Source of the DNA: a virus
Direction: 5' to 3' (one strand)
IMG/VR virus record: IMGVR_UViG_3300030616_000002
Coordinates: 1 to 64,000 of that record
Length of the DNA: 64,000 nucleotides
Both the position numbers and the translations under genes were made by a program. Of this stretch, positions 5,486 to 39,323 are shown piece by piece. A model generated the notes under the pieces. It ran no database searches. It worked only from the letters and a program-made list of their open reading frames with translations, and was not told the DNA's origin. Position 1 is the stretch's first letter. Each line of letters begins with the position of its first letter.

Positions 5486-6158
5486 CGAGCGATTGACCGG
5501 TCCGAGAACGCCCGAGGAAGACGGGCTGATTGTCTACGGGATCGACCCCGCGTCTCTGGGCGCGTGGCCCGATTTCGCCGACCGCGAGATCCGGGATCCT
5601 GCGCTGCCCCCAGACGTGATCCCGCGAGTAGAGGAGAGGCCGGATGGGACCGACTTGGACGCGCTGATCGACAAATATCTGGCCTACGAAGAGGATCGCT
5701 ACGTGATCCGATTCGCGTTACGGGGCAAAGGGCCGGCGGAGATCTCTGCTGCGTTCGATGCTATCGGCTGGCCGTGTCCAAAGGGTACGATAAAAGAGCG
5801 GCTCAACAAGTCAGTCGCGGTGTTATCCGCCGCCTACAAACTAGAGTGCGTAGACCGAGAGATCCGCGTATCGGCGTTGACCGAAAAGCAACATGCGATC
5901 TGGCGGTACTACCGGGCGGGCGAGACCTATCGGGGGATAGCCGAGGCGCTGGGATGCGGGACGCGCTTCGCCTTCGAGCAGATGGCTACGATAACCGAGA
6001 ATCTGCGAGCGGCCGGCTACGGCGAGATCGTTGACGCCGTAGACGCGCTAAGAAAAGCGATGGCCCCTGGGGGCCGAGGAAACATAAGCCGGATTAGTCC
6101 GGACGGAGGACACGATGGAGCCACATCCGATAGCGGGACTGTTCCCGCCGCTTCCTGA
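5478..6158 (+). CDS. HTH protein (LuxR / sigma-70 region-4-like C-terminal half)
   Basis: 226 aa. LTEKQHAIWRYYRAGETYRGIAEALGCGTRFAFEQM looks like a region-4 type helix-turn-helix. Confidence 0.4.
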   Translation: MTNERLTGPRTPEEDGLIVYGIDPASLGAWPDFADREIRDPALPPDVIPRVEERPDGTDLDALIDKYLAYEEDRYVIRFALRGKGPAEISAAFDAIGWPCPKGTIKERLNKSVAVLSAAYKLECVDREIRVSALTEKQHAIWRYYRAGETYRGIAEALGCGTRFAFEQMATITENLRAAGYGEIVDAVDALRKAMAPGGRGNISRISPDGGHDGATSDSGTVPAAS

Positions 6159-7158
6159 TGCCGAGTATCAGGAGCTAGTACAAGACATCCGAGATAACGG
6201 GCAGCGAGATCCGATCACGGTCTGGAAGGAAAACGGCAACGAGTGGATCGTTGATGGGTGCTCGCGGTTCAAGGCGTGCACCGAGATCGGGGCCGCGGTC
6301 AAGGTCGATTACGAGGAGTTCAGCGGCGACGGCGAGATCTTCGCGTTCGTTATGAGCCGGAATATGCGGCGGCGTCACATGGGTACGTCACAGAGATCGC
6401 TCCTCGCGGCCGAGCTAGCCCAGTACTACATGGACAATATCGCCCGGGACGATAGCGAGCAGAGCGCGAGCGCCGCGCTCAAGGAAACGGCGAAGGCACA
6501 GAGGGTATCCCCGCGCTCCGTTGCCTCGGGTAAGGCGCTAGAGATCGCTGGGGTAGATGAACTAGTCGCGCTGGTCAAGGGCGGAGACCTTGCGGTCAAC
6601 CCGGCCGAATTGGTAGCGAAGAGTTGTACTCCCGACGAGCAGCGGGCGCTAGTAGAGGCTGGGCCAAAGGCGGTCAGAAAGAAGGCAAAGGAGATCCGCG
6701 AGCAGAAGAAAAAGCAGCGGGCCGCGGAGAAGGCGTTGCGTGAGGCCGAGGCGCAGGCTGGTGTAAAGCCGGCGGAGGACGCTGCGCCAAGGCCTGATCC
6801 CGACAAGCCGCGAAAGAGCATAACGCTCGGCGCAGACAAGCCGCAGGGGCGCGACGCGATAGTTGAGTCGGAGCCGGAGCTAGAGCCCGAGGTTGAGCGC
6901 GACGACGCGATCTGCGGCGGTCCCGACTGCGGGCTGGTAGTCGACCCGGATCAGTGTATCCGGGCTGACGCCGATGGCTCGCGCGGGTATTTCTGCTCGC
7001 TAGCCTGCTTGCTCTCCGCAATGCTGGCGGGGATTGCGATCATAGATATCGAGATCATCGGCGGTAGCACGGCAGCGGAATTTCTCGCCGCCCTCGATAT
7101 CCCCGAGGCCAGGGCCGAGGCGGTGCGGGATGCCCTGAACAAGGCGCGCGTCGGATGA
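6115..7158 (+). CDS. ParB-like nuclease domain protein
   Basis: 347 aa. N-terminus HPIAGLFPPLPDAEYQELVQDIRDNGQRDPITVW...IVDGCSRFKAC is ParB/Srx-like. It has a Lys/Ala-rich linker and a Cys-rich C-terminus (CGGPDCG...FCSLAC). Confidence 0.7.
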   Translation: MEPHPIAGLFPPLPDAEYQELVQDIRDNGQRDPITVWKENGNEWIVDGCSRFKACTEIGAAVKVDYEEFSGDGEIFAFVMSRNMRRRHMGTSQRSLLAAELAQYYMDNIARDDSEQSASAALKETAKAQRVSPRSVASGKALEIAGVDELVALVKGGDLAVNPAELVAKSCTPDEQRALVEAGPKAVRKKAKEIREQKKKQRAAEKALREAEAQAGVKPAEDAAPRPDPDKPRKSITLGADKPQGRDAIVESEPELEPEVERDDAICGGPDCGLVVDPDQCIRADADGSRGYFCSLACLLSAMLAGIAIIDIEIIGGSTAAEFLAALDIPEARAEAVRDALNKARVG

Positions 7159-7571
7159 CTTGGCGGGACGCCAAGATCGGGATCGTTTGCGCGCTGATCG
7201 GGATGGCAGCCGGGGTTGTTGCGTACGCTATCGGAGCGCGCAGCGTTGAATCTGGGATCTCGGATCGCGTTGCTACCCTAGAAGCCTGCCTCTCTGCTGA
7301 CATGCTAGTGGAGGCGTCCCCTGATCCGTGTTTCCAGATCAGGGAGCGGATCCGTAACGAACGTACTGCCCTCTCCCTGGCCAAGGTATCGCTACGGTTG
7401 ACCCACAGGGTAGACGAGACAATGCGTACGCTCGACTCTACCTACTCTCAGCACGAGGCGGGTAGGCAGCGCGTGCCGTGGGTTAGGCGTGCGCTATGGC
7501 GGGCGGCGTATTGGATCAAGGGGGCCGGGGTAGGGGCACCAAGGCCAGAGGAGGTGGACCGTGGCGACTGA
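7155..7571 (+). CDS. membrane protein, hypothetical
   Basis: 138 aa with one N-terminal TM helix (IGIVCALIGMAAGVVAYAIG). ATGA overlap with the ParB-like gene. Ends in the EEVDRGD tail encoded by the junction motif. Confidence 0.5.
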   Translation: MTWRDAKIGIVCALIGMAAGVVAYAIGARSVESGISDRVATLEACLSADMLVEASPDPCFQIRERIRNERTALSLAKVSLRLTHRVDETMRTLDSTYSQHEAGRQRVPWVRRALWRAAYWIKGAGVGAPRPEEVDRGD

Positions 7572-7598
7572 CAACGAACAGGCTGACAGAGGGAGGGC

Positions 7599-7700
7599 AT
7601 GATGCGGGCAGAGATCCATCTTTGGTGTCTGTATTTGAGCTTTGTTCTGATGGCCGAGGCAGGGCTATTGCTTGCGTCGTTGAGGTTTTCCGGATGCTGA
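7599..7700 (+). CDS. hydrophobic micro-ORF (33 aa)
   Basis: Own translation: MMRAEIHLWCLYLSFVLMAEAGLLLASLRFSGC. GGGAGGG lies just upstream, and its stop overlaps ATG 7694 of the next gene. Confidence 0.3.
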   Translation: MMRAEIHLWCLYLSFVLMAEAGLLLASLRFSGC

Positions 7701-8548
7701 GTTCTACGCCTCGTCTGCCGACGATGGACTTCGCTGCGGATCTTGCAGAGTCGCTTGAGGTGCTGCGCGAGCACGAACCGGCAGAGGGCTACTACGGGCT
7801 ATTCTCCGGCGGCAAGGACTCGGTTGCGCTCAGGCACCTAGCCAAGATGGCGGGCGTCAAGGTGGCATGGCACTACAACGTCACCATAGACCCCCCGGAA
7901 CTTGTTCGCTTCATGCGTGAGCACTACCCGGACACCACCTGGCGTCGCTCGCCACACGGACCGTTCTTCAGGCGAGCAGCGGAGGTCAAGGGATTCCCGA
8001 TGGTGCGCCCGTGGCGAAACCGCTGGTGCTGTGATGAGTACAAGGAGCAGGGGAGCCCTCGGGGCGTGACGCTGCTGATGGGCGTGAGGGGCGAGGAGTC
8101 GGCATCGCGCGCCGCTGGCTGGGATGTCGTGGGGGAGTTTCGCAAGACCAAGACCAAGACGGTTGCGCCGCTCTATCGCTGGCCGAGCGATGACCTTTGG
8201 GACTTCATCCGTGGCGAGAGCGTGCCGTATTGCTCGCTCTATGATGAGGGATTCAAACGCCTAGGGTGCGTGGGCTGTCCCATGCCGGGTGCGGACGCAA
8301 GGCGCGCAGAGTTTGCACGTTGGCCACGGTTCGAGCAGCGATGGCAGTACGTTATTAAGCGCACATGGGAGCGCCGCAGCGGTACGACGCAGCGCGACGG
8401 GCAGCCGTGGTTCGGGTCGGCGTATTTCAAGGATTGGCGCGGGCTGTGGGAGTGGTGGCGTGACGGCTGTCGAGGCTTGCCTGCACCGAAAGACCCTTGC
8501 GGTATGAGCGCGGGGCCCTCGGAGCAGAACCAGGGAGGTGCGCGATGA
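7694..8548 (+). CDS. PAPS reductase-like PP-loop ATP pyrophosphatase family protein
   Basis: In frame with ORF 7496..8548. YYGLFSGGKDSVALRHLA is the SGGxDS PP-loop, and the C-terminal half is Cys-rich (WCC...CSLYDEGFKRLGCVGCP). Start chosen at ATG 7694, coupled to the upstream micro-ORF. Confidence 0.75.
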   Translation: MLSSTPRLPTMDFAADLAESLEVLREHEPAEGYYGLFSGGKDSVALRHLAKMAGVKVAWHYNVTIDPPELVRFMREHYPDTTWRRSPHGPFFRRAAEVKGFPMVRPWRNRWCCDEYKEQGSPRGVTLLMGVRGEESASRAAGWDVVGEFRKTKTKTVAPLYRWPSDDLWDFIRGESVPYCSLYDEGFKRLGCVGCPMPGADARRAEFARWPRFEQRWQYVIKRTWERRSGTTQRDGQPWFGSAYFKDWRGLWEWWRDGCRGLPAPKDPCGMSAGPSEQNQGGAR

Positions 8549-8569
8549 CCGCCATCGAGGAGGTGGACC

Positions 8570-8842
8570 GTGACTAGCCCTCACCTGACCCTGCTCCGCG
8601 TGGAGCAGATAGACGAGCAGTGCGCCGAGCGCGGCAACCAGTGGGCGCTGTGCCAGGACTGGCGGTGGTCTTTCGCCGCGCTGGCTGCGATGCCGTGTGA
8701 GCAGCGGCGTTATCTCGCGTGCGAGCACTGCGGAGAAACAGGGTGCGAGAATTGCAACGGCAGCGGCCTTGTTCCCGGCCCCGACTGCGGCTCCTGCCCT
8801 ACCTGCAAGGCGCGGAAGGCGCTTGAGGTGGACCGTGGGTAA
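8570..8842 (+). CDS. small Cys-rich zinc-finger protein (DnaJ-type CxxCxGxG-like repeats)
   Basis: 90 aa. CEHCGETGCENCNGSGLVPGPDCGSCPTC. The GTG start is defined by the junction motif at 8557-8572. Confidence 0.55.
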   Translation: MTSPHLTLLRVEQIDEQCAERGNQWALCQDWRWSFAALAAMPCEQRRYLACEHCGETGCENCNGSGLVPGPDCGSCPTCKARKALEVDRG

Positions 8843-9056
8843 GAGGACAGCATTCGACGACGAGCGCGCGGTCCCTCGTTGTTCTGCGGTCGGAGACTTG
8901 GAGTGGACGCTGCGCTACGGATATCCGACGCGGGACGACTTGTTGTTTGCGGCGTCGGTGTGCAATGTCTATACCACCATGTGCCTGGCCCGCAACGTAA
9001 AGCAGTTCAAGGCTATCGTTGATTTAGCCATGACGGAGGAGGTGGACCGTGGGTGA
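8835..9056 (+). CDS. hypothetical protein
   Basis: Tail of ORF 8697..9056. Start reassigned to the motif-defined GTG 8835 (MGKRTAFDDE...). Ends EEVDRG. Confidence 0.5.
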   Translation: MGKRTAFDDERAVPRCSAVGDLEWTLRYGYPTRDDLLFAASVCNVYTTMCLARNVKQFKAIVDLAMTEEVDRG

Positions 9057-9381
9057 CAAGGTGGTGCTCATTTCTGCTCACCCGCGATTCCAATACCAGA
9101 GAGGCAGGCGGCGCGGTGGCAATTACAATCAGGTGCTCGCCGCGCTGGGGGTCGTTGATGCGGACAAGGTGCCAGAATGCGTTTACGCTCGCGGTTGCGG
9201 CGCGAGGGCCGAGGTCTGGTTGCGGTTTATTGGAGGCCTTTCCGTAAACAAGTCACGGCTATCCGGAAAGCATTTCAAGGACAAGGCCGAAGCGAATGAG
9301 TGGGGCCGCATTCTGGCCAGCAACATGAAACTGCCGTTCTACAAGCGCGAACCGCGGCGAGAGGAGGTGGACCGTGGGTAA
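9049..9381 (+). CDS. hypothetical protein
   Basis: ORF track, 110 aa. Motif-defined GTG start; ends EEVDRG. Confidence 0.55.
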   Translation: MGDKVVLISAHPRFQYQRGRRRGGNYNQVLAALGVVDADKVPECVYARGCGARAEVWLRFIGGLSVNKSRLSGKHFKDKAEANEWGRILASNMKLPFYKREPRREEVDRG

Positions 9382-9745
9382 TCTGAGCAAGAACGCACAG
9401 CATATGTTGCTACATACCCTCGGCCTGACGAATAGCGACGAGATCTATCGAAACCATTTCGTTGCTGGCGATGTTCACTGCGACAAGCCGTATCTCGCAG
9501 AGCTAGTAGGTGCGGGATTGATGGTCGAGCGAACCGCGCCCGCGTTCTGTTCGGCCGACGACCGGCTATTCATGGCTACCGAGGAAGGGCGCGCTGCAGC
9601 ACTTCGAATCAAGCACGAGAACACGCCAAAGCTCACACGCTCACAGGAGCGCTATCAGCGGTATCTGCGCGTTGCAGATTGCTTCGAGAGCTTCCGCGAT
9701 TTTCTTAAATGGGACGGGGGCCGAAAGGAGGTGGACCGTGGGTGA
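9374..9745 (+). CDS. hypothetical protein
   Basis: ORF track, 123 aa. Motif-defined GTG start; ends KEVDRG. Confidence 0.55.
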   Translation: MGNLSKNAQHMLLHTLGLTNSDEIYRNHFVAGDVHCDKPYLAELVGAGLMVERTAPAFCSADDRLFMATEEGRAAALRIKHENTPKLTRSQERYQRYLRVADCFESFRDFLKWDGGRKEVDRG

Positions 9746-10127
9746 CGCGCGGGACCCGTTAGCTTCCGTGTTGGCCGAGGTTCGCCAAGAACGAGCGCTT
9801 CAAGATAGGCGCTGGGGCGAGCAGAATCACAGCCCCGCGCAGTATTTGGCAATCCTAGCTGAAGAGTTCGGCGAGGCTGCCAAAGAGGCGGTTGAAGCCG
9901 AGTTTGAGAAGCCCTGGGGAGATCCACGCGCCCGGTTGCGTGAAGAGTTAGTGCAGACGGCAGCCGTGGCAGTAGCATTTATCGAGTGCCTAGATCGAAA
10001 CGTGCCAGAGCGCATCGTGGCACGCAGGTTGTTCAATGCTGTTGCGGAGTGCGCAACGCAGAAATGGGCAGAAGAGGTATCCGAGAAATACCCCGGTCTT
10101 CTGTCCAGCGGGGAGTATCACCGATGA
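9738..10127 (+). CDS. MazG-like nucleotide pyrophosphohydrolase (candidate)
   Basis: Tail of ORF 9672..10127 from the motif-defined GTG 9738. RRWGEQNHSPAQYLAILAEEFGEAAKE...ELVQTAAVAVAFIE matches the EExGE / helical pattern of phage MazG-like proteins (recalled). Confidence 0.5.
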   Translation: MGDARDPLASVLAEVRQERALQDRRWGEQNHSPAQYLAILAEEFGEAAKEAVEAEFEKPWGDPRARLREELVQTAAVAVAFIECLDRNVPERIVARRLFNAVAECATQKWAEEVSEKYPGLLSSGEYHR

Positions 10128-10221
10128 GTGACGCGCGGGAGCTGCAGAAGCGATTGCGCGTCGAGGAGGTGGACCGTGGCGACTGACCTCGAACAGGCTG
10201 ACAGAGGGAGGGGGGAGCAGG

Positions 10222-10494
10222 ATGCTATCTGACGAAACGATTGAGGTGCTGCGGAATGGCGAGAGACTTCGCGGCTACATGCTGCGCTCTGGCGGGAAGT
10301 GGCTCGGCGCGGCGCGAACGTGGTTGCAGTGGAACCGCATCAACGGCGAGCGCGTAACGTGGGGCAGCGACGACGTGCTTGAACCACACTTCACTGCTCG
10401 CGATGTCGAGGAACTCGCCGCAGAGGTAGCGGCAGCAGCAATGACGGAGGCGGCGCGAATCCTCGCTGAGCCGGAGGAGGTGGACCGTGGGTGA
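10222..10494 (+). CDS. hypothetical protein
   Basis: ORF track, 90 aa. GGGAGGGGGGAG lies upstream. Ends EEVDRG. Confidence 0.5.
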   Translation: MLSDETIEVLRNGERLRGYMLRSGGKWLGAARTWLQWNRINGERVTWGSDDVLEPHFTARDVEELAAEVAAAAMTEAARILAEPEEVDRG

Positions 10495-10825
10495 CAGCAA
10501 GCCGTTGACCGAGGCCGAGGCGAAGCGACTCGTAGAGTGGTGGCGCGAGGAGATCGGGAATAGCGATGTCACCATCGAGACTGACTTCGCCGTAGATGTT
10601 GCTGATTGCTTGGCCGGATTGCTGGACGCCGCGCGGGCCGAGATCGAGCGGCTGCGGCGGAGGCGGGACGAGGCGGCGTGGACCTCGGATCAGGTGGAGG
10701 CGGCGCTTCGGGACTTTGTGAACGCGGCGAACCTGCTGACAGAAAAACGAGGCCTCATCCAACCGTTTCTCGCGCTGTTCGTGAGGCACGCTGAAATCAT
10801 CGCCGCGTTGGACGGAGGTGAGTGA
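10487..10825 (+). CDS. hypothetical protein (paralog of 10822..11145)
   Basis: 112 aa. Shares RDEAAWTSDQVE and the ALDGGE C-terminus with the next ORF. Confidence 0.55.
   Translation: MGDSKPLTEAEAKRLVEWWREEIGNSDVTIETDFAVDVADCLAGLLDAARAEIERLRRRRDEAAWTSDQVEAALRDFVNAANLLTEKRGLIQPFLALFVRHAEIIAALDGGE
10664..10700 (+). repeat. 37-nt perfect direct repeat, copy 1 (CGGGACGAGGCGGCGTGGACCTCGGATCAGGTGGAGG)
   Basis: Read directly; identical to 10984-11020. Confidence 0.9.
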
Positions 10826-11145
10826 TGCTGCGGCTGACAGATGAGGAGCGAAATCGTTGGCCCGATGTGCCTTATAGAAAATCAGAGGAGAATGAATTAC
10901 GCCGATGGCAAAAAAGCGGGGGGCGACAGCAGACCGTTGAGCAACGTCGCATCTGGGCCACGCTGGACGCCGCGCGGGCGGAGCGGGACGAGGCGGCGTG
11001 GACCTCGGATCAGGTGGAGGAGGCCGTCCGGGGCGCGTGCACCTGCGGGGGCGGCGGGCCTGGTGACTGCTGTCCTGCGTGCGAGGTGTGGCATCGGCTC
11101 GTGAGCGGTGCGCCGTGGGATGCGGCGCTGGACGGGGGTGAGTGA
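10822..11145 (+). CDS. hypothetical protein (paralog of 10487..10825)
   Basis: 107 aa; ATGA overlaps on both sides. Confidence 0.55.
   Translation: MMLRLTDEERNRWPDVPYRKSEENELRRWQKSGGRQQTVEQRRIWATLDAARAERDEAAWTSDQVEEAVRGACTCGGGGPGDCCPACEVWHRLVSGAPWDAALDGGE
10984..11020 (+). repeat. 37-nt perfect direct repeat, copy 2
   Basis: Read directly; identical to 10664-10700. Confidence 0.9.
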
Positions 11146-11408
11146 TGCTGACGCGCGTCCGAGTGGAGCAATGGCTAGTAGGTATGAGTAGCGGCGAAGC
11201 GGAGAAACTCTTTGTTGTGCAACTCGCACGCGACTGGCTCACCCTGAAGGCCGAGCGGGACTGGGCCGTCGAGGCGCTGGCGGGGATGCCGTGCCAAAAG
11301 CCCGTCGAGCCAGAACCCGGCACCGAGGGATGGCTCGACTGCGGGCAGGTGCGAGGCCGAGAACTCTGCCCTCCCTGCAAGGCGCGGGCGATGCGAGGTG
11401 AGCGATGA
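11142..11408 (+). CDS. hypothetical protein
   Basis: ORF track, 88 aa; ATGA overlaps. Confidence 0.5.
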   Translation: MMLTRVRVEQWLVGMSSGEAEKLFVVQLARDWLTLKAERDWAVEALAGMPCQKPVEPEPGTEGWLDCGQVRGRELCPPCKARAMRGER

Positions 11409-11848
11409 AGTTTAAAGTGCTGTGTAGGCGGCTTGGCGATCTTGACGGCCATACGTGGGAAGAAAATTACGAGAAAGACGCCGTGAAGACAATTGCCGAT
11501 GCGTGGCAGTGGGCCGAGGCAACGGTAAAGAGCTTCAACGATACCCTTCGAGCAGGAGAACATGCCCGCGAGGTTGTTGATGTGGAGGCAGATGAAAGCA
11601 CGGCCGCCTTCAAGAAGGAACACGACTGGGAGAAAACAAACAAGGTGACCATACTCAAGGGCGGCTTAATGTACGACACCTATGTTTGTACGGCATGCGG
11701 GATCACAGCGAAGCGCTATTCCTTGTCGTGGCCACCCACGATAGACAGCAAGTACAGAGCCAAAGTGTACAGAAGATGCGACACAGCGCAAAGGCATCTT
11801 GAAAAACGAGCCCGCGCATTAGAGGGCGATGAAGGAGGCCAGCGATGA
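11405..11848 (+). CDS. hypothetical protein
   Basis: ORF track, 147 aa. Visibly lower GC than neighbours. CxxC pair (YVCTACG). Confidence 0.55.
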   Translation: MKFKVLCRRLGDLDGHTWEENYEKDAVKTIADAWQWAEATVKSFNDTLRAGEHAREVVDVEADESTAAFKKEHDWEKTNKVTILKGGLMYDTYVCTACGITAKRYSLSWPPTIDSKYRAKVYRRCDTAQRHLEKRARALEGDEGGQR

Positions 11849-12078
11849 ATGAGCGGACCTGCGAGACCTGCGTGTGCAAACCGGTGTGCATTCTCACCGA
11901 CACGGATCAGATGGGGAGCGACAAGTTCTGCGAGCACTGGCGCGGCGACGACTCGGCTGTCGTGGAGGCGGCGAGGGAGGCTGTGGCACTTGGTCACAAC
12001 GACGACTGCATGTTCTGCGGCTTCAAAGATAAGGCGCTATTAGCCGCGCTCGACGCGCTGGAGGTGGACCGTGGGTAG
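11845..12078 (+). CDS. small Cys-rich protein (tandem paralog 1)
   Basis: 77 aa. The RTCETCVCKPVC...CEHWRGDDSAVV pattern is shared with the next ORF. Ends LEVDRG. Confidence 0.55.
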   Translation: MNERTCETCVCKPVCILTDTDQMGSDKFCEHWRGDDSAVVEAAREAVALGHNDDCMFCGFKDKALLAALDALEVDRG

Positions 12079-12295
12079 AACCTGCTCGACGTGCGCGCAC
12101 CTAGAGGTGTGTCGCTACACGCCGCTGTACGCTGGAGGCCGAGCTATCGGGTGCGGTGACGGCCTGCCGCACTGGCGCGGCGACCGCGAGGCTGTGGTGG
12201 GTCTGTTGCGAGAGACACTGGAGTGGGTGCCAGATATGGATATGAGGAACAGGATACGCGCCGCGCTCGCCGCGCTGGAGGTGGACCGTGGGTGA
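12071..12295 (+). CDS. small Cys-rich protein (tandem paralog 2)
   Basis: 74 aa. RTCSTCAHLEVC...HWRGDREAVV. Ends LEVDRG. Confidence 0.55.
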   Translation: MGRTCSTCAHLEVCRYTPLYAGGRAIGCGDGLPHWRGDREAVVGLLRETLEWVPDMDMRNRIRAALAALEVDRG

Positions 12296-12316
12296 AAAAC
12301 AAAAAGGAGAAGCGAG

Positions 12317-12523
12317 ATGAAGATCAGCAGGACAAGCACGATGGAACTCAGATACGAAATGAGTTTCAAGGAGTTCGTCAGGGCGATGTGGGGATCGGTT
12401 GATGGCGACAGTCTCCCGGAAGACGGAGAAGGAGTCGTGGTCGAGAATATAGTCATCGACGCAGATGCGGAATTTGTAACCATCGACCTCCGAGCCTCCG
12501 GCGAAACAGAAATCGAGAAGTGA
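12317..12523 (+). CDS. hypothetical acidic protein
   Basis: ORF track, 68 aa. AAGGAG lies upstream. The ATG overlaps the stop of a 10-codon mini-ORF opened by the motif GTG at 12288. Confidence 0.45.
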   Translation: MKISRTSTMELRYEMSFKEFVRAMWGSVDGDSLPEDGEGVVVENIVIDADAEFVTIDLRASGETEIEK

Positions 12524-12534
12524 AGAGGTGGACC

Positions 12535-12798
12535 GTGGCGACTGACCTGCGAGAAAAGATCCGTCAGCGAATCAAGACCATGTCACCGGCACAGCTAGGT
12601 CAGTGCTACGATGCGCTGTTCAGTCGTCGCTGCCTGTCCTGCGCACAGGTCGAGCAAGGCGATGGCGACCTGGCCGAGGGCAAGAACTTCATGGACGATG
12701 GAGGCGACGGGCTTGTCTATTGCCAGCGATACGAAATCTGGGTGTCGGGCTGGCACAACAAGAACCCGCACTGCTACGAGGAGGTGGACCGTGACTGA
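12535..12798 (+). CDS. hypothetical protein
   Basis: In frame with ORF 12520..12798. Start moved to the motif-defined GTG 12535 (MATDLREKIR...). Ends EEVDRD. Confidence 0.5.
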   Translation: MATDLREKIRQRIKTMSPAQLGQCYDALFSRRCLSCAQVEQGDGDLAEGKNFMDDGGDGLVYCQRYEIWVSGWHNKNPHCYEEVDRD

Positions 12799-14452
12799 TA
12801 GGACTTGCGATAGCTGCGAGCACCTCCGTGCCGAGCTGGCATCCGCGTACGACGACCTGCGGAGCAAGGGCGAGCGGATAGCGCGGCTGGTAGAGGCGGC
12901 GCAGGCGCGGCGGTGGACTACCGAGCCGCCGGCAGAACCGGGGTGGTACTGGTTTCGGTTGACCCCTCGCATAATTGAGGTTGTAGAAGTAGTGAGGCAC
13001 CCGCAGCGGGCCGGACTGCTATTCAAGACAAAAACGTCACAATGGATGAAGATCGAAGAAGGCGGCGAGTGGTGCGGCCCCATCCCCGCCCCCGACGCCG
13101 CGCAGCCGACAGGGGATCCCGCGGAGCCCTGCAGCCTCGCTGATGCGGCGATCTGCCCGCACAGCGATCCGGAGCGAGATGCGCTGGAGCCCTGCGCTAC
13201 GTGCGGAGGCGAGCGACGGCGGCTCGTGCGCGCCGAGGGGCACGAGGGCATGGTCTGGGTAGATTGCCCCGACTGCGCGCCCGCAGCGGAGAGCATCGAG
13301 GAAACCATCGAGCGTCGGGCAAAGGAGATGCCAGTGGAGCCCTGCGCTGAGCCGTGTGACAGAGCGCACGCAATCGGCTGTCCTGACCTGGATTCGGATC
13401 GCTGCGTGAAGCCACACGAGCGTTCTGCGGAAGCGGCCGAGCCCGCAGCGGAGAGTAATGGGTATCCCGACCGAGCAGATATCGCCCGCGAGCAGTTCGC
13501 GGAACTGGCTGACACCGCGCCCGCAGCGGAGAGCAATACCTGCGGGGAGTGCGCGGAGTGGCCGCTGGACGAGCGCGGCAAACCCGTCCTCTACTGGAAA
13601 CTGCCGACCTGTGGAGCCAAGCCAGAGAGCGGAGCGCTGAACCGTGACGCGATACCCTGCGAGCACTTCCGCCCCCGCACCGAGGACAGCGCAGAGGCGA
13701 TCACGTTCACGGTCAGCTATCACCCCGAGCCGCCCGGCGGATACGCTACCGTCCTGGAGTGCCCGGGCTGCATCTCGCAGGGCACCACGCGGGACAGGTG
13801 CATTGCCTCTACGCTAGAGGCCCTGGCTAACTGGTGGCGTGCGGATACCGACACCGACACGGACGGTGATACGGAATCACAAGAGAAATCCGATTCGGAT
13901 ACGGAAAACCCCAGTGATTCTGACACCGACTCCGACACGGACACGGACACCGACACGGAAGACAATTTAGGAGCCGTGGCCCTGCGCCGGGACCTCGACG
14001 CCCTGGCCGAGAAACTCGAACATGCTGACGCCGGGTTATCGGTACAGATCATGAAGCTGCGCTCCGACCTCGCGGCGCTGCGAATCGACATGGGGAAACA
14101 CTGCGCGACAGCGACGGACCTGGAGGAGCTGGCCGAGAAACTTTTTCTAGCAGAGGAGCACTGGCAGACGGACGTTGGTGTGCTACGGGGCACGCTAGAG
14201 GGCAAGTGGCCGCCGGATTCTGTAGCCAGGCTGGCCGAGAAGGTGGAGCGGCTGGAGCGTGGCGTCCACCCCCGCTCCACGCAGATAAAAGCACTATTCG
14301 GGCGCCTCGACGCGCTGGAGAACGCGGAGCCCTGTTGCCACGAGCGCGGCGCGAGCGGCAAGCCGGTGCCGTGCGATCTTCGCTCCCTAGAAGCCGACCT
14401 CACCGAGCGCATCGAAGCCTTGGAGCGCGCCCTAGAGCGCGAGGAGGAGTAG
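12791..14452 (+). CDS. large multidomain protein (Cys clusters, HicB-like segment, Asp-Thr/Asp-Ser repeat, C-terminal coiled coil)
   Basis: In frame with ORF 12611..14452, from the motif-defined GTG 12791. ITFTVSYHPEPPGGYATVLECPGCISQGTTRDRCIASTLEAL resembles the HicB/UPF0150 fold. DTDTDTDGDT...DSDTDSDTDTDTDT is an acidic repeat, and the C-terminus is rich in heptad-like LxxL/E. Confidence 0.6.
   Translation: MTDRTCDSCEHLRAELASAYDDLRSKGERIARLVEAAQARRWTTEPPAEPGWYWFRLTPRIIEVVEVVRHPQRAGLLFKTKTSQWMKIEEGGEWCGPIPAPDAAQPTGDPAEPCSLADAAICPHSDPERDALEPCATCGGERRRLVRAEGHEGMVWVDCPDCAPAAESIEETIERRAKEMPVEPCAEPCDRAHAIGCPDLDSDRCVKPHERSAEAAEPAAESNGYPDRADIAREQFAELADTAPAAESNTCGECAEWPLDERGKPVLYWKLPTCGAKPESGALNRDAIPCEHFRPRTEDSAEAITFTVSYHPEPPGGYATVLECPGCISQGTTRDRCIASTLEALANWWRADTDTDTDGDTESQEKSDSDTENPSDSDTDSDTDTDTDTEDNLGAVALRRDLDALAEKLEHADAGLSVQIMKLRSDLAALRIDMGKHCATATDLEELAEKLFLAEEHWQTDVGVLRGTLEGKWPPDSVARLAEKVERLERGVHPRSTQIKALFGRLDALENAEPCCHERGASGKPVPCDLRSLEADLTERIEALERALEREEE
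13844..13963 (+). repeat. imperfect GAC-ACN/GAT-TCN microsatellite-like repeat encoding (D-T/S)n
   Basis: Read directly: gataccgacaccgacacggacggtgatacg...gacaccgactccgacacggacacggacaccgacacggaagac. Confidence 0.85.
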
Positions 14453-14456
14453 GACG

Positions 14457-15296
14457 ATGAGGTGGCCCAAAGCCCCAACCCGCTGGATAGAAGGGCGAAC
14501 GCTGTTTGTATCGGTGCCATTCACCTGGGACCTGCCTGCGCTTCGGGACGAACTACAGCAGGGAGATCTAGCGTGGGATTCGGTTATAGTCGGTGGCCCC
14601 GCAGTGGACATGATGCCAGGATGGTTCAATGATCTGCCGCACGTTCACACCGGACACGGGATGCCGGGCGCGATGCAGCGGGTGAACCCAGAGGCTACCA
14701 AGACCAGCGTCGGATGTATCCGCCGCTGCGAGTTCTGTGCTGTGCCGCAGACAGAGGGCCGCCTGCGTGAGTTGGATGACTGGCCCGATTTGCCGATCAT
14801 CACAGATAACAATCTGCTTGCATGCTCGCGCCGCCACTTCGATCGCGTGATCGAGCGGCTGAAGGGGCACGGGTGGGCCGACTTTAACCAGGGCATCGAC
14901 GCGCGTCTGCTGACAGCCCATCACGCGCAAGCCATCGCGGAGATCGGCAAAGTGACGGTGCGGCTGGCCCTCGATTCAATGTCACATCGGGCAGCGTGGG
15001 AGAATGCCGTCGATACCCTGACAACCAACGGCGTCCCGAAGTCGCGCATCCGATCCTATGCGTTAATCGGCTTCGACAGCAGCCCCGAAGAAGCATGGAA
15101 CCGCTGCCAATATATCGAACAGCACGTCCGCATGGTGCTGCCGATGTGGTTTCACGAACTGAACGCCCTGGAGTTAAATTCTGTGACAAAGGAGCAGGGC
15201 AAGCTCGGGTGGTGCGACAAAGAACGGCTGCACATCATGCGCTATTACTACCAGCACCAGGGCGCAGCCCTGAAAGCCGAGCCGGAGCCCGAGTAG
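14457..15296 (+). CDS. radical SAM domain protein (candidate)
   Basis: 279 aa. VGCIRRCEFCAV carries the CxxxCxPhiC cluster motif; the preceding ~70 aa could be a cobalamin-binding-like domain. Confidence 0.6.
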   Translation: MRWPKAPTRWIEGRTLFVSVPFTWDLPALRDELQQGDLAWDSVIVGGPAVDMMPGWFNDLPHVHTGHGMPGAMQRVNPEATKTSVGCIRRCEFCAVPQTEGRLRELDDWPDLPIITDNNLLACSRRHFDRVIERLKGHGWADFNQGIDARLLTAHHAQAIAEIGKVTVRLALDSMSHRAAWENAVDTLTTNGVPKSRIRSYALIGFDSSPEEAWNRCQYIEQHVRMVLPMWFHELNALELNSVTKEQGKLGWCDKERLHIMRYYYQHQGAALKAEPEPE

Positions 15297-15317
15297 GAGC
15301 GGGAGAGGAGTAGGACG

Positions 15318-16265
15318 ATGGCTCGTGTACTGGTAACAGGCGGCGCTGGATTCATCGGATCGCACCTCTGCGATGCGCTGCTCATCCGCGGCGACGAGGT
15401 AGTCTGCCTTGATAACTTTTTCTCGGGTAGCCGGGACAACGTACAGCAGCATCGCGAGAATCCGCGCTTCGAGCTAATCCGCCACGATGTTGTTGAGCCT
15501 ATTTTGCTTGAGATCGATCAGATCTATCACCTGGCGTGCCCTGCCTCGCCGATCCACTACCAATACAACCCGGTCAAGACGACCAAGACTAACGTAATGG
15601 GAACGCTGAACATGCTCGGCTTGGCGAAGCGGGTAGGGGCGCGGCTGCTGCTAGCCTCTACCTCCGAGGTGTACGGCGATCCCGAGGTGCATCCACAGCC
15701 TGAGGATTACTGGGGACGGGTGAACCCTATCGGGCTGCGTTCCTGCTACGACGAGGGCAAGCGCGTAGCCGAGACGCTCTGCTTTGACTACCGCAGGCAG
15801 AACGGCGTGGACGCGCGCGTAGTGCGGATCTTCAATACCTACGGCCCGCGTATGGCTGCTGATGACGGCCGGGTAGTAAGCAACTTCTGTGTGGCGGCGC
15901 TCACCGGCAAGCCCCTGCTGGTATATGGGGACGGTAGCCAGACGCGGTCGTTCTGTTACGTACGCGACTTGGTCGACGGGCTGATCGCCGCGATGAATGG
16001 CGAGGCCGAGGGTATAGAGGGGCCGATCAATCTCGGCAACCCGGATGAGCGGACGGTACTAGAGCTGGCGCAGAAGATACTCTCCCTTACCCCGCCTGGG
16101 CCCGGCATCGAATACCGCGATCTGCCGGCAGACGATCCGGTCCGGCGGAAACCGGTAATAGATCGTGCTCGCAAGATCCTATGGTGGCGACCTACCGTCT
16201 CCCTAGATAGCGGCATAAGGACTACGTTAGAGAGCTTCCGCGAAAAAAACCTTGCTAAAGGCTAG
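15318..16265 (+). CDS. UDP-glucuronate decarboxylase (UDP-xylose synthase), SDR family
   Basis: 315 aa. [14 protein letters not shown] (Rossmann GxxGxxG), [15 protein letters not shown] (YxxxK) and [11 protein letters not shown] are characteristic of UXS-type enzymes. Confidence 0.88.
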
Positions 16266-20122: not shown

Positions 20123-20546
20123 TGCCGATCTGGTTCTCCCTGGCAGCCACTACACCGAACTGGCGCGCGGAATCGTGAACGCAGCGGCCGATGGTCTCCC
20201 CTCTGTAGGCCAGCCGCGCGAGGATCAGTCTCATCCGCGGACGATCAAGATCCTCCCCGATATGTCGATCCTAGTCTGGCACTACGATTCAGTAGAGGCG
20301 CGGGGCGGTCTCTTGCGGCCGGACGGCGAGCCGCTAAAGAAGCTCGGGTTGGTTTGCGATCTACTGGATCCGGAGCAGGCGTTTGATTTCTTCCATCGCA
20401 ACGCGCTCAACTTTGCGGAGTTCTTGGTCGAGCGGGACAAGGCGATTGCGGCGGCGAAAGCGGGGCGCGATGAGAAGCCCAAGAAGCAACGCCTGCCAAA
20501 GAGCGAGCGGAAGGCGCGGCGAAAGAAGATGAGGGGGCGGCGATGA
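20115..20546 (+). CDS. hypothetical protein with basic tail KKMRGRR
   Basis: In frame with ORF 20064..20546, from ATG 20115. The C-terminus is encoded by the 33-nt repeat. Confidence 0.45.
   Translation: MSDADLVLPGSHYTELARGIVNAAADGLPSVGQPREDQSHPRTIKILPDMSILVWHYDSVEARGGLLRPDGEPLKKLGLVCDLLDPEQAFDFFHRNALNFAEFLVERDKAIAAAKAGRDEKPKKQRLPKSERKARRKKMRGRR
20514..20546 (+). repeat. 33-nt junction repeat, copy 1 (GCGCGGCGAAAGAAGATGAGGGGGCGGCGATGA)
   Basis: Read directly. Identical to 22128-22160; a 16-nt version (GAGGGGGCGGCGATGA) is at 21543-21558. Each copy ends in an ATGA stop-start overlap. Confidence 0.9.
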
Positions 20547-21219: not shown

Positions 21220-21558
21220 GTGATGATCGAAGCGCTGATCGGATGCGGGATAGCATGGGCTGGCGGTTTCGCTATCGGTCTCTGTGTTGGACATCAGATA
21301 CGGTGTCGCTCTGTATCGAGCAAGCCCCAGCCGAGACCGGAGCGCCAGCACGATCCTTACCGCGCCACGTTGGCCGGGCACGCCGTCAGGGTCGGGTATG
21401 ATCACCCGGAGCGCTACCCGGGCCTATACGAAGCGGCCGGTGAGGTGTGCAGCGAAGAGTCCACGCTCAAGCAGACCGCCGACGTCGGCGGCTTCACGGA
21501 CCTGGACGAGATCGCAGAAGCGTTCTGGAAGTACGAGGAGAAGAGGGGGCGGCGATGA
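21220..21558 (+). CDS. hypothetical protein with N-terminal TM segment
   Basis: ORF track, 112 aa. MMIEALIGCGIAWAGGFAIGLCVG. Confidence 0.45.
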   Translation: MMIEALIGCGIAWAGGFAIGLCVGHQIRCRSVSSKPQPRPERQHDPYRATLAGHAVRVGYDHPERYPGLYEAAGEVCSEESTLKQTADVGGFTDLDEIAEAFWKYEEKRGRR

Positions 21559-22160
21559 CCTGCATCGTAGGGTTGCGCGCGCCAGATGGCGTGGTCATGG
21601 GCGGCGATAGCGCCGGCATCGGCAATATGGATCTACATGTGCGCGCAGACGAAAAGGTCTTTGCTCGGAGCGGGGGCGGTGCTGACTGGCTGTTCGGATT
21701 CACGTCTAGTTTCCGCATGGGCCAATTGATTCGCTACTCGCTGAAACTGCCGAAGGTGCCGGGCCGAGACGGCGATCTCTATCGCTACATGGTAACTAAG
21801 TTCGTTGATGCCTGCCGCGACTGCTTTAAGAGCGGGGGCTTTGCCCAGAAGCATAAAGAGGAGGAGTCTGCCGGGACGTTCCTTGTCGGTGTTCGCGGAT
21901 CGCTGTTCACCGTGTACGGAGATTACCAGGTGGCGCAGGAGGCGTGCGGCTTTGCCTCTGTTGGTTGTGGCGGTGAGATCGCGCGTGGGTCATTGCATGC
22001 AACAGCGGTTGCGGCGCGCGAGGCGCAGCCGTGGCGAATCGGTCCGCGCAGGCGAGTAGAGATGGCGTTGCAGGCGGCCGAGCAATGCAGCGCTGAGGTT
22101 CGCGGGCCGTTTGTAATCTTGGAGGGTGCGCGGCGAAAGAAGATGAGGGGGCGGCGATGA
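21555..22160 (+). CDS. proteasome/HslV-type Ntn-hydrolase peptidase (family T1-like)
   Basis: In frame with ORF 21447..22160, from ATG 21555 (ATGA overlap). MTCIVGLRAPDGVVMGGDSA puts Thr right after Met as the predicted nucleophile, and a later FASVGCGGEIARGSL (GxGxxxA-like) fits proteasome beta-type folds. Confidence 0.55.
   Translation: MTCIVGLRAPDGVVMGGDSAGIGNMDLHVRADEKVFARSGGGADWLFGFTSSFRMGQLIRYSLKLPKVPGRDGDLYRYMVTKFVDACRDCFKSGGFAQKHKEEESAGTFLVGVRGSLFTVYGDYQVAQEACGFASVGCGGEIARGSLHATAVAAREAQPWRIGPRRRVEMALQAAEQCSAEVRGPFVILEGARRKKMRGRR
22128..22160 (+). repeat. 33-nt junction repeat, copy 2
   Basis: Identical to 20514-20546. Confidence 0.9.
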
Positions 22161-30774: not shown

Positions 30775-30811
30775 AAGGGTCGCGCGTGTCGCCCGCATCC
30801 ACCGTGGCCCC

Positions 30812-30860
30812 GCGGGTCGCGGTTGGATCGTCCTCCCCGGCCGCGACCCGCTCCTTTTAT
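30812..30860 (+). terminator. candidate hairpin terminator/attenuator
   Basis: GCGGGTCGCGG (30812-30822) pairs perfectly with CCGCGACCCGC (30841-30851), with an 18-nt loop, followed by TCCTTTTAT. Confidence 0.4.
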
Positions 30861-30941
30861 CCTCTACTAATAGTAAGGGGACCCACAAAGGCTTCGGACG
30901 CTGAGCCAGATCAGCGTCTGATCTACTGTACGGGAGAACAC

Positions 30942-32591
30942 TTGCCTGACCTCCGCTCTCGCCTATCCGACCTTGCCGAAGGCTTCGCCGACGCGGCGAA
31001 CCAGACGCTAGCCAACCTCGGACTAACCCTCTACAACTTCGGTACCAAAGATATGAGCGCCGCAAACGCGGTAGCTCAAGCCGTCGCGCCAAAGGCCGAG
31101 CCCAAGAACTCCGAGGATTACCCGCCGGACCAAACCAGCCGACGCGGGCTCTCGATCGATGATGGCCGTATAGGCGGTAGCGCGTACGACTGGTACGATA
31201 AACACACCAAGACCTCGAAGAGCCGCAAGGCGGTTTATGCCGACTGCAGGCAGATGGATTCCGAGAGCCCGGAGCTTCACTCTGCGGCTAACGTAATCTC
31301 CCGTAACCTGTTCAGTTCCGAGGAAGGCGACGAGGTTACCTACAAGGTTGAGGCAGAAGACAAAAACGTAAAGCGGATCCTCGACGACCTAGACCACCGT
31401 ACGCGGCTACCACGCAGGGCCCCGGTAATCGCCCGAGAGCATATCTGTATGGGCGACGCGTTTACCGAGATCGTTGTAGGCGAAGAGCGCAAGCCGCTGA
31501 TCTGGGCAATCAACGAACTCCCGCCGACAACGATGCTCCGCAACGAGGACCACGGGCACCTGGAAAGCTTCCAGCAGGTCGACTCGGCGGGCAATCCGGT
31601 TGTGACCTGGGATCCGTGGGCCATCATGCACCTGCGGTACAACCGGCCCTTTACATCCAAGTATGGCCAGTCGATCTTCTACCCGATCCGCAAGGACTGG
31701 CGGCGGATATCCGCGCTAGAGGACAGCACCGTAGTCATGGTGTTAGAGCGCGCGTCACAGGTCCGCGTCCACAAGGTACCGGTACCGGGCGACCGCTCGC
31801 AGCAGGGCTCCGCGATGAATGACTACAAGGCGCGGAACCGGCGTAAGCGTTCGTGGAACGCGAACAATTCGACCCTGGTAGCTACCTACAATCCGATGGA
31901 TACGGCCGAGATCTACATACCCGTACCGATGGGTATGGAGAACTACCCGAAGGATCTCGGGATCGACACGCTAGACGGGCAAGCGAACTTCCGAGAAGTG
32001 ATCACGGTCGACGAGTACTTCCAGCGCAAGTGTCTGATCCCGCTTGGCGTGCCTCCTAGCTACATGGGGATCGAAAAAGAAACGCACAGCCGCGCGATCA
32101 ACATGGCGCAAGAGGTCGAGTTCGGGCGTATGCTCCGGCACATCCAATACACCCTGGCGACCGATCTAAAAGAATGCGTTTACAAGCTACAGCTACGCTT
32201 CGCCTACGGGAAAGACATCCCGGATGAGGACTATTGGCTTGAGTTCCCTCGCCCGTCAAAGATCGACGATAAGGTCAAGGCGGAGATCATAGAGATCCAG
32301 GCGAAAGCCGCAGCCCTGATCGGCAATACGTTCGGGGTGCCTCTAGATCTAATCCTGATCCACTTCTTTGGCTGGGGCGAAGAGAAGGCGGCAGAGGTCG
32401 CCGCTACCCCCGGCATTTCATCGCAGGAGACCGAGGGGCTGTCAAAGCAGGAGGCCAAGAGCCTGCTCGGCGATGTGCAGCGGGCCGTATCTGAGGACTC
32501 CGAGCGGGCGCGGGAACTCGGGGGACTGCTAGAGAGCATGGCCGACGCAGCAGACTACCTACTGGAAACCAAGGACCCCGTGCGAGTCTAA
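30942..32591 (+). CDS. portal protein
   Basis: In frame with ORF 30771..32591. Size and position after the terminase fit a portal. Start is ambiguous: TTG 30942 follows GGGAG, and ATG 31053 is an alternative. The stretch 30771-30940 covers the repeat element and hairpins. Confidence 0.65.
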   Translation: MPDLRSRLSDLAEGFADAANQTLANLGLTLYNFGTKDMSAANAVAQAVAPKAEPKNSEDYPPDQTSRRGLSIDDGRIGGSAYDWYDKHTKTSKSRKAVYADCRQMDSESPELHSAANVISRNLFSSEEGDEVTYKVEAEDKNVKRILDDLDHRTRLPRRAPVIAREHICMGDAFTEIVVGEERKPLIWAINELPPTTMLRNEDHGHLESFQQVDSAGNPVVTWDPWAIMHLRYNRPFTSKYGQSIFYPIRKDWRRISALEDSTVVMVLERASQVRVHKVPVPGDRSQQGSAMNDYKARNRRKRSWNANNSTLVATYNPMDTAEIYIPVPMGMENYPKDLGIDTLDGQANFREVITVDEYFQRKCLIPLGVPPSYMGIEKETHSRAINMAQEVEFGRMLRHIQYTLATDLKECVYKLQLRFAYGKDIPDEDYWLEFPRPSKIDDKVKAEIIEIQAKAAALIGNTFGVPLDLILIHFFGWGEEKAAEVAATPGISSQETEGLSKQEAKSLLGDVQRAVSEDSERARELGGLLESMADAADYLLETKDPVRV

Positions 32592-39036: not shown

Positions 39037-39122
39037 GGATGGTTGGCCGAATGGACTATGGCGCTGGTCTTGAAAACCAGTGGTCGAAAGACCTGGGGGT
39101 TCGAATCCCTCACCATCCTCCA
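39037..39122 (+). tRNA. tRNA-Ser (anticodon UGA), encoded CCA
   Basis: Hand-folded. Acceptor GGATGGT/ACCATCC; 3-bp D stem GCC/GGC; anticodon stem CTGGT/ACCAG with loop CTTGAAA; long variable arm GGTC-GAAA-GACC; T arm GGGGG-TTCGAAT-CCCTC; then T-CCA. Confidence 0.85.
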
Positions 39123-39124
39123 GG

Positions 39125-39210
39125 GGAGCGGTGCAGGAATGGCAACTGACCGGAGTGCTAATCCGAGGTCACCGGAAGGTGTGGAGGTTCGAGTCCTCCC
39201 CGCTCCGCCA
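39125..39210 (+). tRNA. tRNA-Ser (anticodon GCU), encoded CCA
   Basis: Hand-folded. Acceptor GGAGCGG/CCGCTCC; D stem CAG/CTG; anticodon stem CCGGA/TCCGA (one C-A mismatch) with loop GTGCTAA; long variable arm CACC-GGAA-GGTG; T arm GGAGG-TTCGAGT-CCTCC; then G-CCA. Confidence 0.7.
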
Positions 39211-39323
39211 GAAGAGAACAGTTTACGCGCTCGGTGCGGGTTGACCTCGGACGGCGGCGGCACCGCAACAGGGGGGAGAGGCCTAGCCAGCCCACCGCAC
39301 CGGGCGCAACAGGAGGGGTTGGT

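Follow-up and report, generated by a model that had tools for sequence, protein, structure and literature searches.

The start-associated sequences (SAS) of the Cluster K mycobacteriophages are short repeats tied to gene starts (Pope et al. 2011, PMC3203893; 188-genome survey, PMC12699233). They are 13-bp asymmetric repeats, present in about 11–19 copies per genome, nearly all in one orientation and 3–7 bp upstream of starts (PMC3203893). Their consensus is GGGATAGGAGCCC, with at most two mismatches, the starts are mostly ATG, and the copies lie in the non-structural part of the genome; about half of them carry an extended element (ESAS) consisting of paired 17-bp imperfect inverted repeats upstream (PMC3203893). 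Known since 2011, their role was still called unverified in the 2025 survey (PMC12699233). Here, we describe a 13-nt motif, GAGGTGGACCGTG, that occurs 12 times at gene junctions of an uncultivated phage, in positions 1 to 64,000 of IMG/VR record IMGVR_UViG_3300030616_000002. This 64,000-nt stretch, hereafter the window, corresponds to bases 15–64,014 of the 94,112-bp metagenomic contig ENA ERZ27252234 k141_1547066. We propose, with a little better than even confidence, that the motif is a termination-reinitiation adaptor which short-patch recombination distributed over a hypervariable block of early genes, and that it doubles as a cassette boundary.

A preliminary description of this DNA had likened the motif to the Cluster K SAS. 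The comparison is apt, as most of the descriptive features agree, whereas the consensus and the clade do not. Like an SAS, the motif is an asymmetric 13-nt sequence, found in 12 copies of one orientation at the starts of mostly unrelated genes; it is limited to non-structural, early-type genes. It also joins a Shine–Dalgarno (SD) core to conserved positions that do not pair with a generic 16S tail and that may thus correspond to the positions of the SAS without a pairing partner in 16S rRNA. The sequence itself is different (GAGGTGGACCGTG here, GGGATAGGAGCCC in Cluster K), the GTG start and the overlapping upstream stop belong to the repeat, and there are no inverted repeats of the 17-bp ESAS type but, in two to three copies, a 37-nt leader extension downstream. 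The phage is of the T4-like, myovirus type and not a Cluster K siphovirus, and the motif is present in one relative, L140, but absent from the parts recovered of the closest relatives, L201 and L204.

Other known systems share some of these properties. The Cluster A stoperators are 13-bp asymmetric repressor-binding sites, found genome-wide in one orientation near gene ends (in PMC3203893); they have no fixed register to a start, whereas the copies described here are clustered and keep an exact register to both start and stop. The promoter–early stem-loop (PeSL) cassettes of T4-type phages consist of an early promoter and a stem-loop terminator and act on transcription (Arbiol et al. 2010, PMC2839356; Comeau et al. 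2014, PMC4122927). In both cases, short repeats lie between small novel open reading frames (ORFs) in hyperplastic T4-like regions. PeSLs are exchange points between unrelated sequences, and the motif may be one too, which fits the breakpoints in the contig pair L147/L148 but not those in L133/L159. Unlike a PeSL, the motif comes without promoter, terminator or hairpin, and it is a translation signal lying largely inside coding sequence. Lastly, three copies drive a short leader with another SD inside it and a stop that overlaps the start codon of the main gene, as in the synthetic bicistronic designs of Mutalik et al. 2013, which reportedly provide reliable translation initiation and expression independent of the downstream sequence. 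The present element is natural, however, and most of its copies couple directly, without a leader.

Our verdict is that the motif is a further variety of start-associated sequences, or of PeSL-like shuffling linkers. As such, it provides an independent SAS-like example, with a different sequence and in an unrelated phage lineage, and the presence of the start and the upstream stop within the repeat points more clearly to termination-reinitiation. The comparisons also tie a translation signal to cassette shuffling, which has so far been tied to transcription signals, the PeSLs. For annotation, the motif can be taken as evidence that GTG starts, very short relay and leader ORFs and common protein tails without a function of their own do occur; in engineering, polycistronic designs could draw on it as a compact, natural adaptor for coupling.

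Sequence and Placement of the Motif

An exact search for AGGTGGACCGTG returns 12 matches in the window, all on the + strand and all within 7552–12793, starting at positions 7552, 8561, 8826, 9040, 9365, 9729, 10167, 10478, 12062, 12279, 12526 and 12782. There are no matches in 100 dinucleotide-preserving shuffles, the chance expectation being 0. Allowing up to two mismatches adds merely five matches, scattered and away from gene junctions; a reverse-complement copy, sought as a possible antisense partner, is absent from the window. No copy lies outside 7.5–12.8 kb in the window or in the next 9.6 kb of the contig. Thus, the 12 perfect 12-mers in 5.3 kb that had been reported are borne out, and the exact and degenerate search proposed at that time places every exact copy at a junction.

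The invariant core is the 13-nt GAGGTGGACCGTG, identical in 12 of 12 copies. Partial conservation reaches from −4 to +16, about 21 nt, with the consensus GAGGAGGTGGACCGTGGGTGA. The longer form in which the motif was said usually to occur is real insofar as this extension is conserved, but the exact 21-mer is found in just two copies, with GAGGAGGTGGACCGTG in seven and GTGGGTGA in four. A position-weight scan of the window is bimodal, with the 12 copies at 27–34 bits and nothing between 10 and 27 bits. The lack of weak or degenerate copies argues for copying rather than convergence. The right flanks fall into the subfamilies GGTRA, GCGACTGAC and ACTRR, which are paired with differing left flanks, and the upstream flanks are unrelated to one another.

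The repeats are far below the assembly k-mer length, and the proteins of this phage come out identical in an independent JGI assembly (94,084 bp); therefore, an assembly artefact is excluded.

Architecture of the Junctions

Each copy comprises the SD GGAGGTG, a perfect complement of the generic anti-SD, the 4-nt spacer GACC, and a GTG; the strong SD of the module is (G)AGGAGGTG. The GACC spacer and positions +1 to +5 do not pair with the 16S tail used, an assumed generic one. Likewise computed with this generic tail, which may not be the host's, the motif genes account for six of the eight strongest SD/anti-SD duplexes predicted among 111 genes. The rest of the genome uses varied SDs and spacers, and ATG provides 72 of the 94 starts outside the cluster. 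The motif is accordingly more uniform than an SD requires, as had been maintained from the beginning.

All 12 GTGs open reading frames, in agreement with the link to starts originally drawn: nine open ORFs of 73–553 aa and three open mini-ORFs of 13, 18 and 10 aa. Given the empirical rate for + strand GTGs, nine of 12 opening long ORFs has P = 0.0035. Both gene callers take these nine GTGs as starts, and homologues of the protein encoded at 9374 begin at the residue aligned with its GTG (e.g., MIDLSQQAQH vs. MGNLSKNAQH). On the upstream side, the frame that reads EVDR through the motif is closed in every copy by a stop shortly past the GTG; counted from the first G of the GTG, this stop starts 5 nt on in nine copies and 8 nt on in three, and the stop–start overlaps are 8 or 11 nt. 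Where the upstream gene ends early, relay ORFs that start by ATGA overlap (8545 and 10124) run through the motif in the EVDR frame. The three leader mini-ORFs (7561, 10176 and 12288) each have a second SD and end on or overlap the ATG of the next gene. The reinitiation role suggested in the preliminary description gains indirect support from this geometry, in 12 of 12 copies, and from the relay and leader mini-ORFs.

RNA folding at the copies is no better than in shuffled sequence (z −1.3 to +1.3), and an Rfam scan of the window returns two tRNAs only. Within the cluster, the + strand has no predicted promoter-like or terminator-like site, and the closest sigma-70-like promoter is at about 4703. 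Hence, the cluster lies inside one long transcription unit, and its genes depend on polycistronic translation.

The Shared C-Terminal Tail

As first described, ten unrelated products share an EVDRG C-terminus. Ten products do end in EVDR(G/D) if the 20-aa mini-ORF at 10124–10186 is counted, and they are indeed mostly unrelated, the genes next to the motif including, once tails are trimmed, only three paralogous pairs (10487/10825, 8570/11145 and 11845/12071). The N-terminus of the 12791 product also resembles the 11845/12071 pair. Since paralogues carry differing junction types, the junction is portable relative to the genes.

The tail is a by-product of the nucleotide motif, because its codons never vary and homologues elsewhere lack it. 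All ten in-frame copies read GTG-GAC-CGT, although CGT makes up just 9% of arginine codons; under the codon usage of the genome, the chance that nine further copies match the first codon set is about 1e-17. The 9374 protein family has 478 detectable members, and the tail is at the end of none of the best 150 representatives; the conserved domain of the family ends at FLKWD, and the tail comes after it. Among PAPS-reductase homologues, one of 120 has an EVDR tail. The motif has therefore been selected or copied as nucleotides, as proposed before.

Could EVDRG nevertheless function as a peptide tag, recognized for instance by the HslV-like peptidase encoded at 21555, or could the sequence GGG-TGA-C promote a +1 frameshift fusing successive proteins? 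We regard this as the least probable of the readings considered here, and the recognition tag raised in the preliminary description is not supported. The occurrence of one tail on ten products would suit a tag, and the gene at 21555–22160 does match an HslV-family PHROG (its product has no sequence match in PDB), but nothing ties it to the tail. Zero synonymous variation in ten copies, the position of the tail beyond a conserved domain, the homologues that do without it, and the one copy that is untranslated in the EVDR frame all speak against a tag. In addition, a second junction family gives unrelated proteins a different common tail, ARRKKMRGRR, by the same logic. The prfB frameshift site is CUU UGA C, which the GGG TGA C of the motif recalls; this candidate was set aside, as the required GGG-TGA context is missing in five copies.

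Relatives and Other Contigs

No near match to the phage is found among 50,697 phage records. Its portal is merely 24% identical to those of jumbo Pseudomonas and Bacillus phages, a portal-based locus search for relatives returns nothing, and a cluster look-up returns only the same phage as assembled by JGI. Partial relatives were nevertheless recovered as metagenomic loci. In L201, from a sister sample, the 3′-phosphoadenosine-5′-phosphosulfate (PAPS) reductase is 70% identical, and the locus is syntenic but compact; the part recovered has no motif copy. The interval between the PAPS reductase and DUF968 genes holds seven small genes in L201 vs. about 23 in the window, the 12317 gene alone being common to both. 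In L201 this shared gene is flanked by a junction of a different type. The repeated junction used in L201 is GCGCAGGAGAGGAGTAG-N3-4-ATG, a type that the window has twice (14444 and 15305). L204 has a DnaB 71% identical to that of the window and is syntenic from the 2397 homologue to the 7155 homologue; again, the motif is absent from the part recovered. In L140, by contrast, where the PAPS reductase is 62% identical, the exact 21-mer stands at the same junction, and the gene downstream of it is unrelated to any in the window. Thus, the motif has a patchy distribution in the lineage, and the region that holds it is hypervariable. The earlier idea of a dedicated signal kept across relatives is weakened: L140 keeps the 21-mer, but the two relatives at about 70% identity show no copy in the parts recovered.

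Beyond the lineage, scans with a 19-mer gave 57 loci in metagenomes and 12 single matches, from scattered phyla and pointing to no particular host, in 185,579 GTDB species genomes; by our own rough estimate, these numbers are about what chance would give in databases this large. In 47 of the 54 distinct occurrences, from metagenomes and genomes of many phyla, the 19-mer lies at the same kind of gene junction, so many bacteria use the sequence as a junction with no phage factor involved. IMG/VR scans with the 21-mer, a 14-mer and two variant patterns returned single unrelated matches only.

Five phage-like contigs, L133, L147, L148, L155 and L163, carry two or three copies and have no protein in common with the window. 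Over 883 nt, L147 and L148 have 85% identity, a homology that starts exactly at the motif. Upstream of it, a small gene has been swapped for another, unrelated to it, whose product likewise ends in EVDR(D/G), and the left breakpoint is just past another SD-ATG junction. The next orthologous junction reads CAGGAGGTGGACCGTGGGTGAC in L148 and CCGGAGGGCAGATGACTGAC in L147 between near-identical flanks, an approximately 20-nt replacement of the junction only. Together, the gene swap and this replacement lie at 510–690 and 860–880 of L147 vs. 170–560 of L148, the latter on the reverse strand. L133 contains drifted variants, among them GAGGAGGCAGAACGTGACTAA and GAGGAGGCGGAACGTGGCTGA, in which the geometry of SD, N6, GTG and stop is kept, and the junction in L159 is an ATG variant retaining GACC, GGAGGCCGACCATGACTGA. 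According to the preliminary description, free drift of spacer and start among relatives would reduce the motif to an ordinary strong SD; the L133 variants, in which only SD, N6, GTG and stop are kept, come close to this.

Signs of Short-Patch Exchange in the Window

The motif is not the only repeated junction in this genome. A 33-nt exact repeat, GCGCGGCGAAAGAAGATGAGGGGGCGGCGATGA, at 20514–20546 and 22128–22160, with a 16-nt version at 21544–21559, joins unrelated genes; this is the family that gives unrelated proteins, including the HslV-like peptidase, the common tail (A)RRKKMRGRR. A third type, GAGGAGTAGGACGATG, occurs at 14444–14459 and 15305–15320, with the SD overlapping a TAG stop and the ATG 4 nt on. 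The version of this third type in the relatives is GAGGAGTAG, then 3–5 nt and the start (L201, 1370–2925; L140, reverse strand, first 20 nt).

The tandem paralogues 10487–10825 and 10825–11145 are 59% identical, yet they share a 38-nt exact tract (10663–10700 and 10983–11020) and a near-identical GGAGGTGAGTGATG junction (10802–10830 and 11122–11150), which suggests recent gene conversion. Small genes lying side by side differ in GC content, with values of 0.52 to 0.67. The genes at 12317–12523, 7602–7700 and 11405–11848 have about 52% GC among neighbours of 60–67%, which suggests that they were recently acquired; two of the three are served by leaders. Lastly, the initial 16 nt of the relay ORF 10124–10186 duplicate the 5′ end of gene 9738. 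This ORF may be a recombination scar and, by the same token, some of the mini-ORFs look like scars that keep ribosomes flowing.

Proposed Mechanism

Reinitiation is established for overlapping stop–start pairs with an upstream SD. We propose that a ribosome finishing an upstream small gene, or a relay or leader ORF, would terminate a few bases past the GTG, where SD/anti-SD pairing would retain it so that it could reinitiate at the next gene. The small early genes would then be translated as a chain, whichever gene is plugged in. The module itself was probably copied by short-patch recombination or gene conversion within the hypervariable region, since selection by the ribosome alone would not hold 12 copies identical. 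Because the modules are identical at many boundaries, they may also serve as crossover points for the swap, insertion or deletion of cassettes. The EVDRG tails and the leader mini-ORFs would be by-products or scars of this copying. A role as a recombination boundary was among those listed at the outset; the L147/L148 comparison and the hypervariability of the region support it indirectly.

Several points weigh against this proposal. L133 and L159 are 99% identical, and the segment replaced between them ends inside the flanking genes and not at the motif. No relative of more than 90% identity was found, so breakpoints at the motif are seen solely in contigs that share no protein with the window. 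The identity tracts, of 13–21 nt, are short for classical homologous recombination. The argument for reinitiation is one of geometry. The identity of GACC in 12 copies, and its retention in L140 and L159, could equally mean that the sequence has a specific reader. Finally, the motif scan covered the window and 9.6 kb beyond it, up to 73.6 kb of the 94.1-kb contig.

Alternative Explanations

A reader of this kind would be a dedicated trans-acting factor, a phage or host protein or an RNA, that recognizes the 13-nt core and co-regulates the translation of the early genes. A factor of this sort has also been suggested for the Cluster K SAS (PMC3203893). There are precedents in T4, where RegA is a repressor that binds initiation regions and RegB an RNase that cuts in SDs, and this phage has T4-like core genes. 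The 13 nt are identical in every copy, including a spacer unable to pair with a standard 16S tail; the copies are confined to one 5.3-kb block of one transcription unit; L140 keeps the motif despite 38% protein divergence; and the ATG variant of L159 keeps GACC. We nevertheless think it unlikely. A family of binding sites normally includes weaker sites, and none exist here; the relatives at about 70% identity do without the motif in the parts recovered, the other multi-copy contigs share no protein with the window, and L133 tolerates drift in the spacer. A Pfam scan of the roughly 107 window proteins, most of them unannotated, shows no RegA, RegB or RNA-binding domain, and no candidate factor emerges when PHROG is scanned as well. 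A further alternative has two versions, in which either a protein or RNA reads the 13-nt core of what would be a 12-gene translational regulon, or adaptors of about 20 nt are written at junctions by templated copying. We hold this to be doubtful too, but the junction-only replacement between L148 and L147 does resemble templated copying and, if true, either mechanism would give a first mechanistic entry point to start-associated sequences, and the first one beyond the actinophages.

The motif might instead act as DNA, as a stoperator-type operator through which a phage regulator modulates transcription of the early block. An asymmetric 13-bp site in one orientation to transcription, at gene boundaries and with helix-turn-helix proteins encoded nearby, would suit such a role. 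A DNA site, however, does not need the exact register to start and stop that every one of the 12 copies shows, these lie together in 5.3 kb instead of genome-wide, no repressor has been identified in the window, and the same 19-mer is an ordinary gene junction in many bacterial genomes; an operator is thus quite improbable. Even less credit can be given to the simplest idea, that the copies are merely strong ribosome-binding sites made alike by independent selection for SD, spacing and start. It would account for the perfect 7–9-nt anti-SD complement at optimal spacing and for the sporadic 19-mers at junctions of many taxa at about the chance rate. Convergence fails, though, to explain 12 identical spacers, the conserved positions +1 to +5 and the absence of intermediates, in a genome where about 100 other genes use varied SDs and spacers and mostly ATG. 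Already disfavoured, this explanation would be revived only by a host 16S 3′ end complementary to GGTGGACC.

Some narrower candidates were set aside. In the case of an extended pairing with the 16S 3′ end, the perfect complement would be GGAGGUGAUCC, from which the motif differs by a GA where the AU should be. A Chi-like site was considered and dropped. The consensus pause element is G-10/Y-1/G+1, and any SD with a start about 10 nt on fits it, so an ops-like or consensus pause is unspecific here. An integron attC is an imperfect palindrome of 57–141 bp at cassette 3′ ends and comes with an integrase; the motif is 13–21 nt long and non-palindromic, and no integrase was found among the window proteins.

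The Individual Copies

All copies and mini-ORFs are on the + strand. Copy 1 (7548–7568, GAGGAGGTGGACCGTGGCGAC) lies in the 3′ end of gene 7155–7571, whose product ends in EEVDRGD. Its GTG, at 7561, opens the 13-aa leader MATDNEQADRGRA (7561–7602), with the internal second SD GAGGGAGGG; next comes a 32-aa hydrophobic ORF, whose ATG(s), at 7599/7602, are overlapped by the leader stop. Copy 2 (8557–8577, GAGGAGGTGGACCGTGACTAG) follows the PAPS reductase gene, at the very junction that has the motif in L140, and its GTG (8570) starts a 90-aa gene. A possible relay mini-ORF of 10 codons, MTAIEEVDRD (8545–8577), with its own SD GGGAGGTG, starts by ATGA overlap with the PAPS-reductase stop and runs through this copy. 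In copy 3 (8822–8842, CTTGAGGTGGACCGTGGGTAA), the GTG at 8835 starts a 73-aa gene, and the upstream tail is LEVDRG.

Three copies then follow, each with a gene of its own: copy 4 (9036–9056, GAGGAGGTGGACCGTGGGTGA), with GTG 9049 and a 110-aa gene; copy 5 (9361–9381, GAGGAGGTGGACCGTGGGTAA), with GTG 9374 and a 123-aa gene; and copy 6 (9725–9745, AAGGAGGTGGACCGTGGGTGA), with GTG 9738 and a 129-aa gene. The stop of this last gene, 9738–10127, has an ATGA overlap with the 20-aa relay mini-ORF MSDARELQKRLRVEEVDRGD (10124–10186). Copy 7 (10163–10183) has the same sequence as copy 1, GAGGAGGTGGACCGTGGCGAC, and its GTG (10176) opens an 18-aa leader ORF, 10176–10232, which has an internal SD and overlaps the ATG at 10222. 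The likeness of copies 1 and 7 extends to a 50-nt repeat of motif plus leader with the second SD (7548–7597 and 10163–10212), 96% identical, of which the copy at 12522 has merely the first 26 nt or so.

Copy 8 (10474–10494, GAGGAGGTGGACCGTGGGTGA) provides GTG 10487 for a 112-aa gene, and copy 9 (12058–12078, CTGGAGGTGGACCGTGGGTAG) provides GTG 12071 for a 74-aa gene. Copy 10 (12275–12295, CTGGAGGTGGACCGTGGGTGA) opens, with GTG 12288, a 10-aa leader ORF at 12288–12320, which contains the SD AAGGAGAA and overlaps the low-GC gene 12317–12523 by ATGA. In copy 11 (12522–12542, GAAGAGGTGGACCGTGGCGAC), GTG 12535 starts an 87-aa gene; the upstream stop, at 12521–12523, is 12 nt before the GTG, and this is the sole copy without an ORF through the EVDR frame. 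The preliminary description had placed two copies, at 8557 and 12524, after the upstream stop, which is right for copy 11, while copy 2 lies inside the possible relay ORF. Copy 12 (12778–12798, GAGGAGGTGGACCGTGACTGA) starts, with GTG 12791, a 553-aa gene.

The Phage and Its Other Genes

The window encodes a T4-type portal (30786–32591), an S77 prohead protease (51043–52515) and a Gp23-like capsid protein (52464–53858), as well as DnaB, a DnaN sliding clamp and a PAPS-reductase-like protein. The + strand carries nearly all of the genes. The motif copies lie among small early-type genes, with none near the portal, capsid or tail-region genes.

The few gaps between genes contain sigma-70-like promoters, located near 2038, 4703, 34425 and 40243. 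Two other short sequences are over-represented in such gaps, beside promoter-like sequences of the form TTGAC(A/T)-N17-TAnnnT: GCTAGCTAGGCTAG, at 1913, 2373, 4717, 16261, 24136, 34461, 40272 and 44504, and TGCAAATTTGCA, at 1983, 4747, 25141, 40195 and 60891. Both probably act at the level of transcription, as a −10 region or an operator, and they differ from the start-associated motif.

Immediately upstream of the motif cluster, the 6115–7158 protein appears ParB-like by eye, with no Pfam match, and is encoded close to the PAPS-reductase-like protein (7694–8548), a pairing of the IbrB/IbrA type; the only weak ParB_N match in the window belongs to another gene, at 32623. At the other end of the cluster, the 553-aa protein (gene 12791–14452) contains a degenerate Asp/Thr/Ser-rich tandem repeat, TDTDTDGD...SDSDTDSDTDTDTDTED, at 13840–13970.

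The capsid module is followed directly by a large block of genes of the glycosyltransferase, methyltransferase and sulfotransferase-like kinds, which occupies 55664–64000 and extends to about 68 kb of the contig (L129). An NAD-dependent epimerase is encoded at 15318–16265. The glycan-gene block is unusually large for a phage, which suggests that the virion or the host surface undergoes glycan modification. Finally, two adjacent tRNA-Ser genes, with the anticodons TGA and GCT, are found at 39037–39210, and the ORF that the public gene caller places across them, 39058–39327, is probably spurious.

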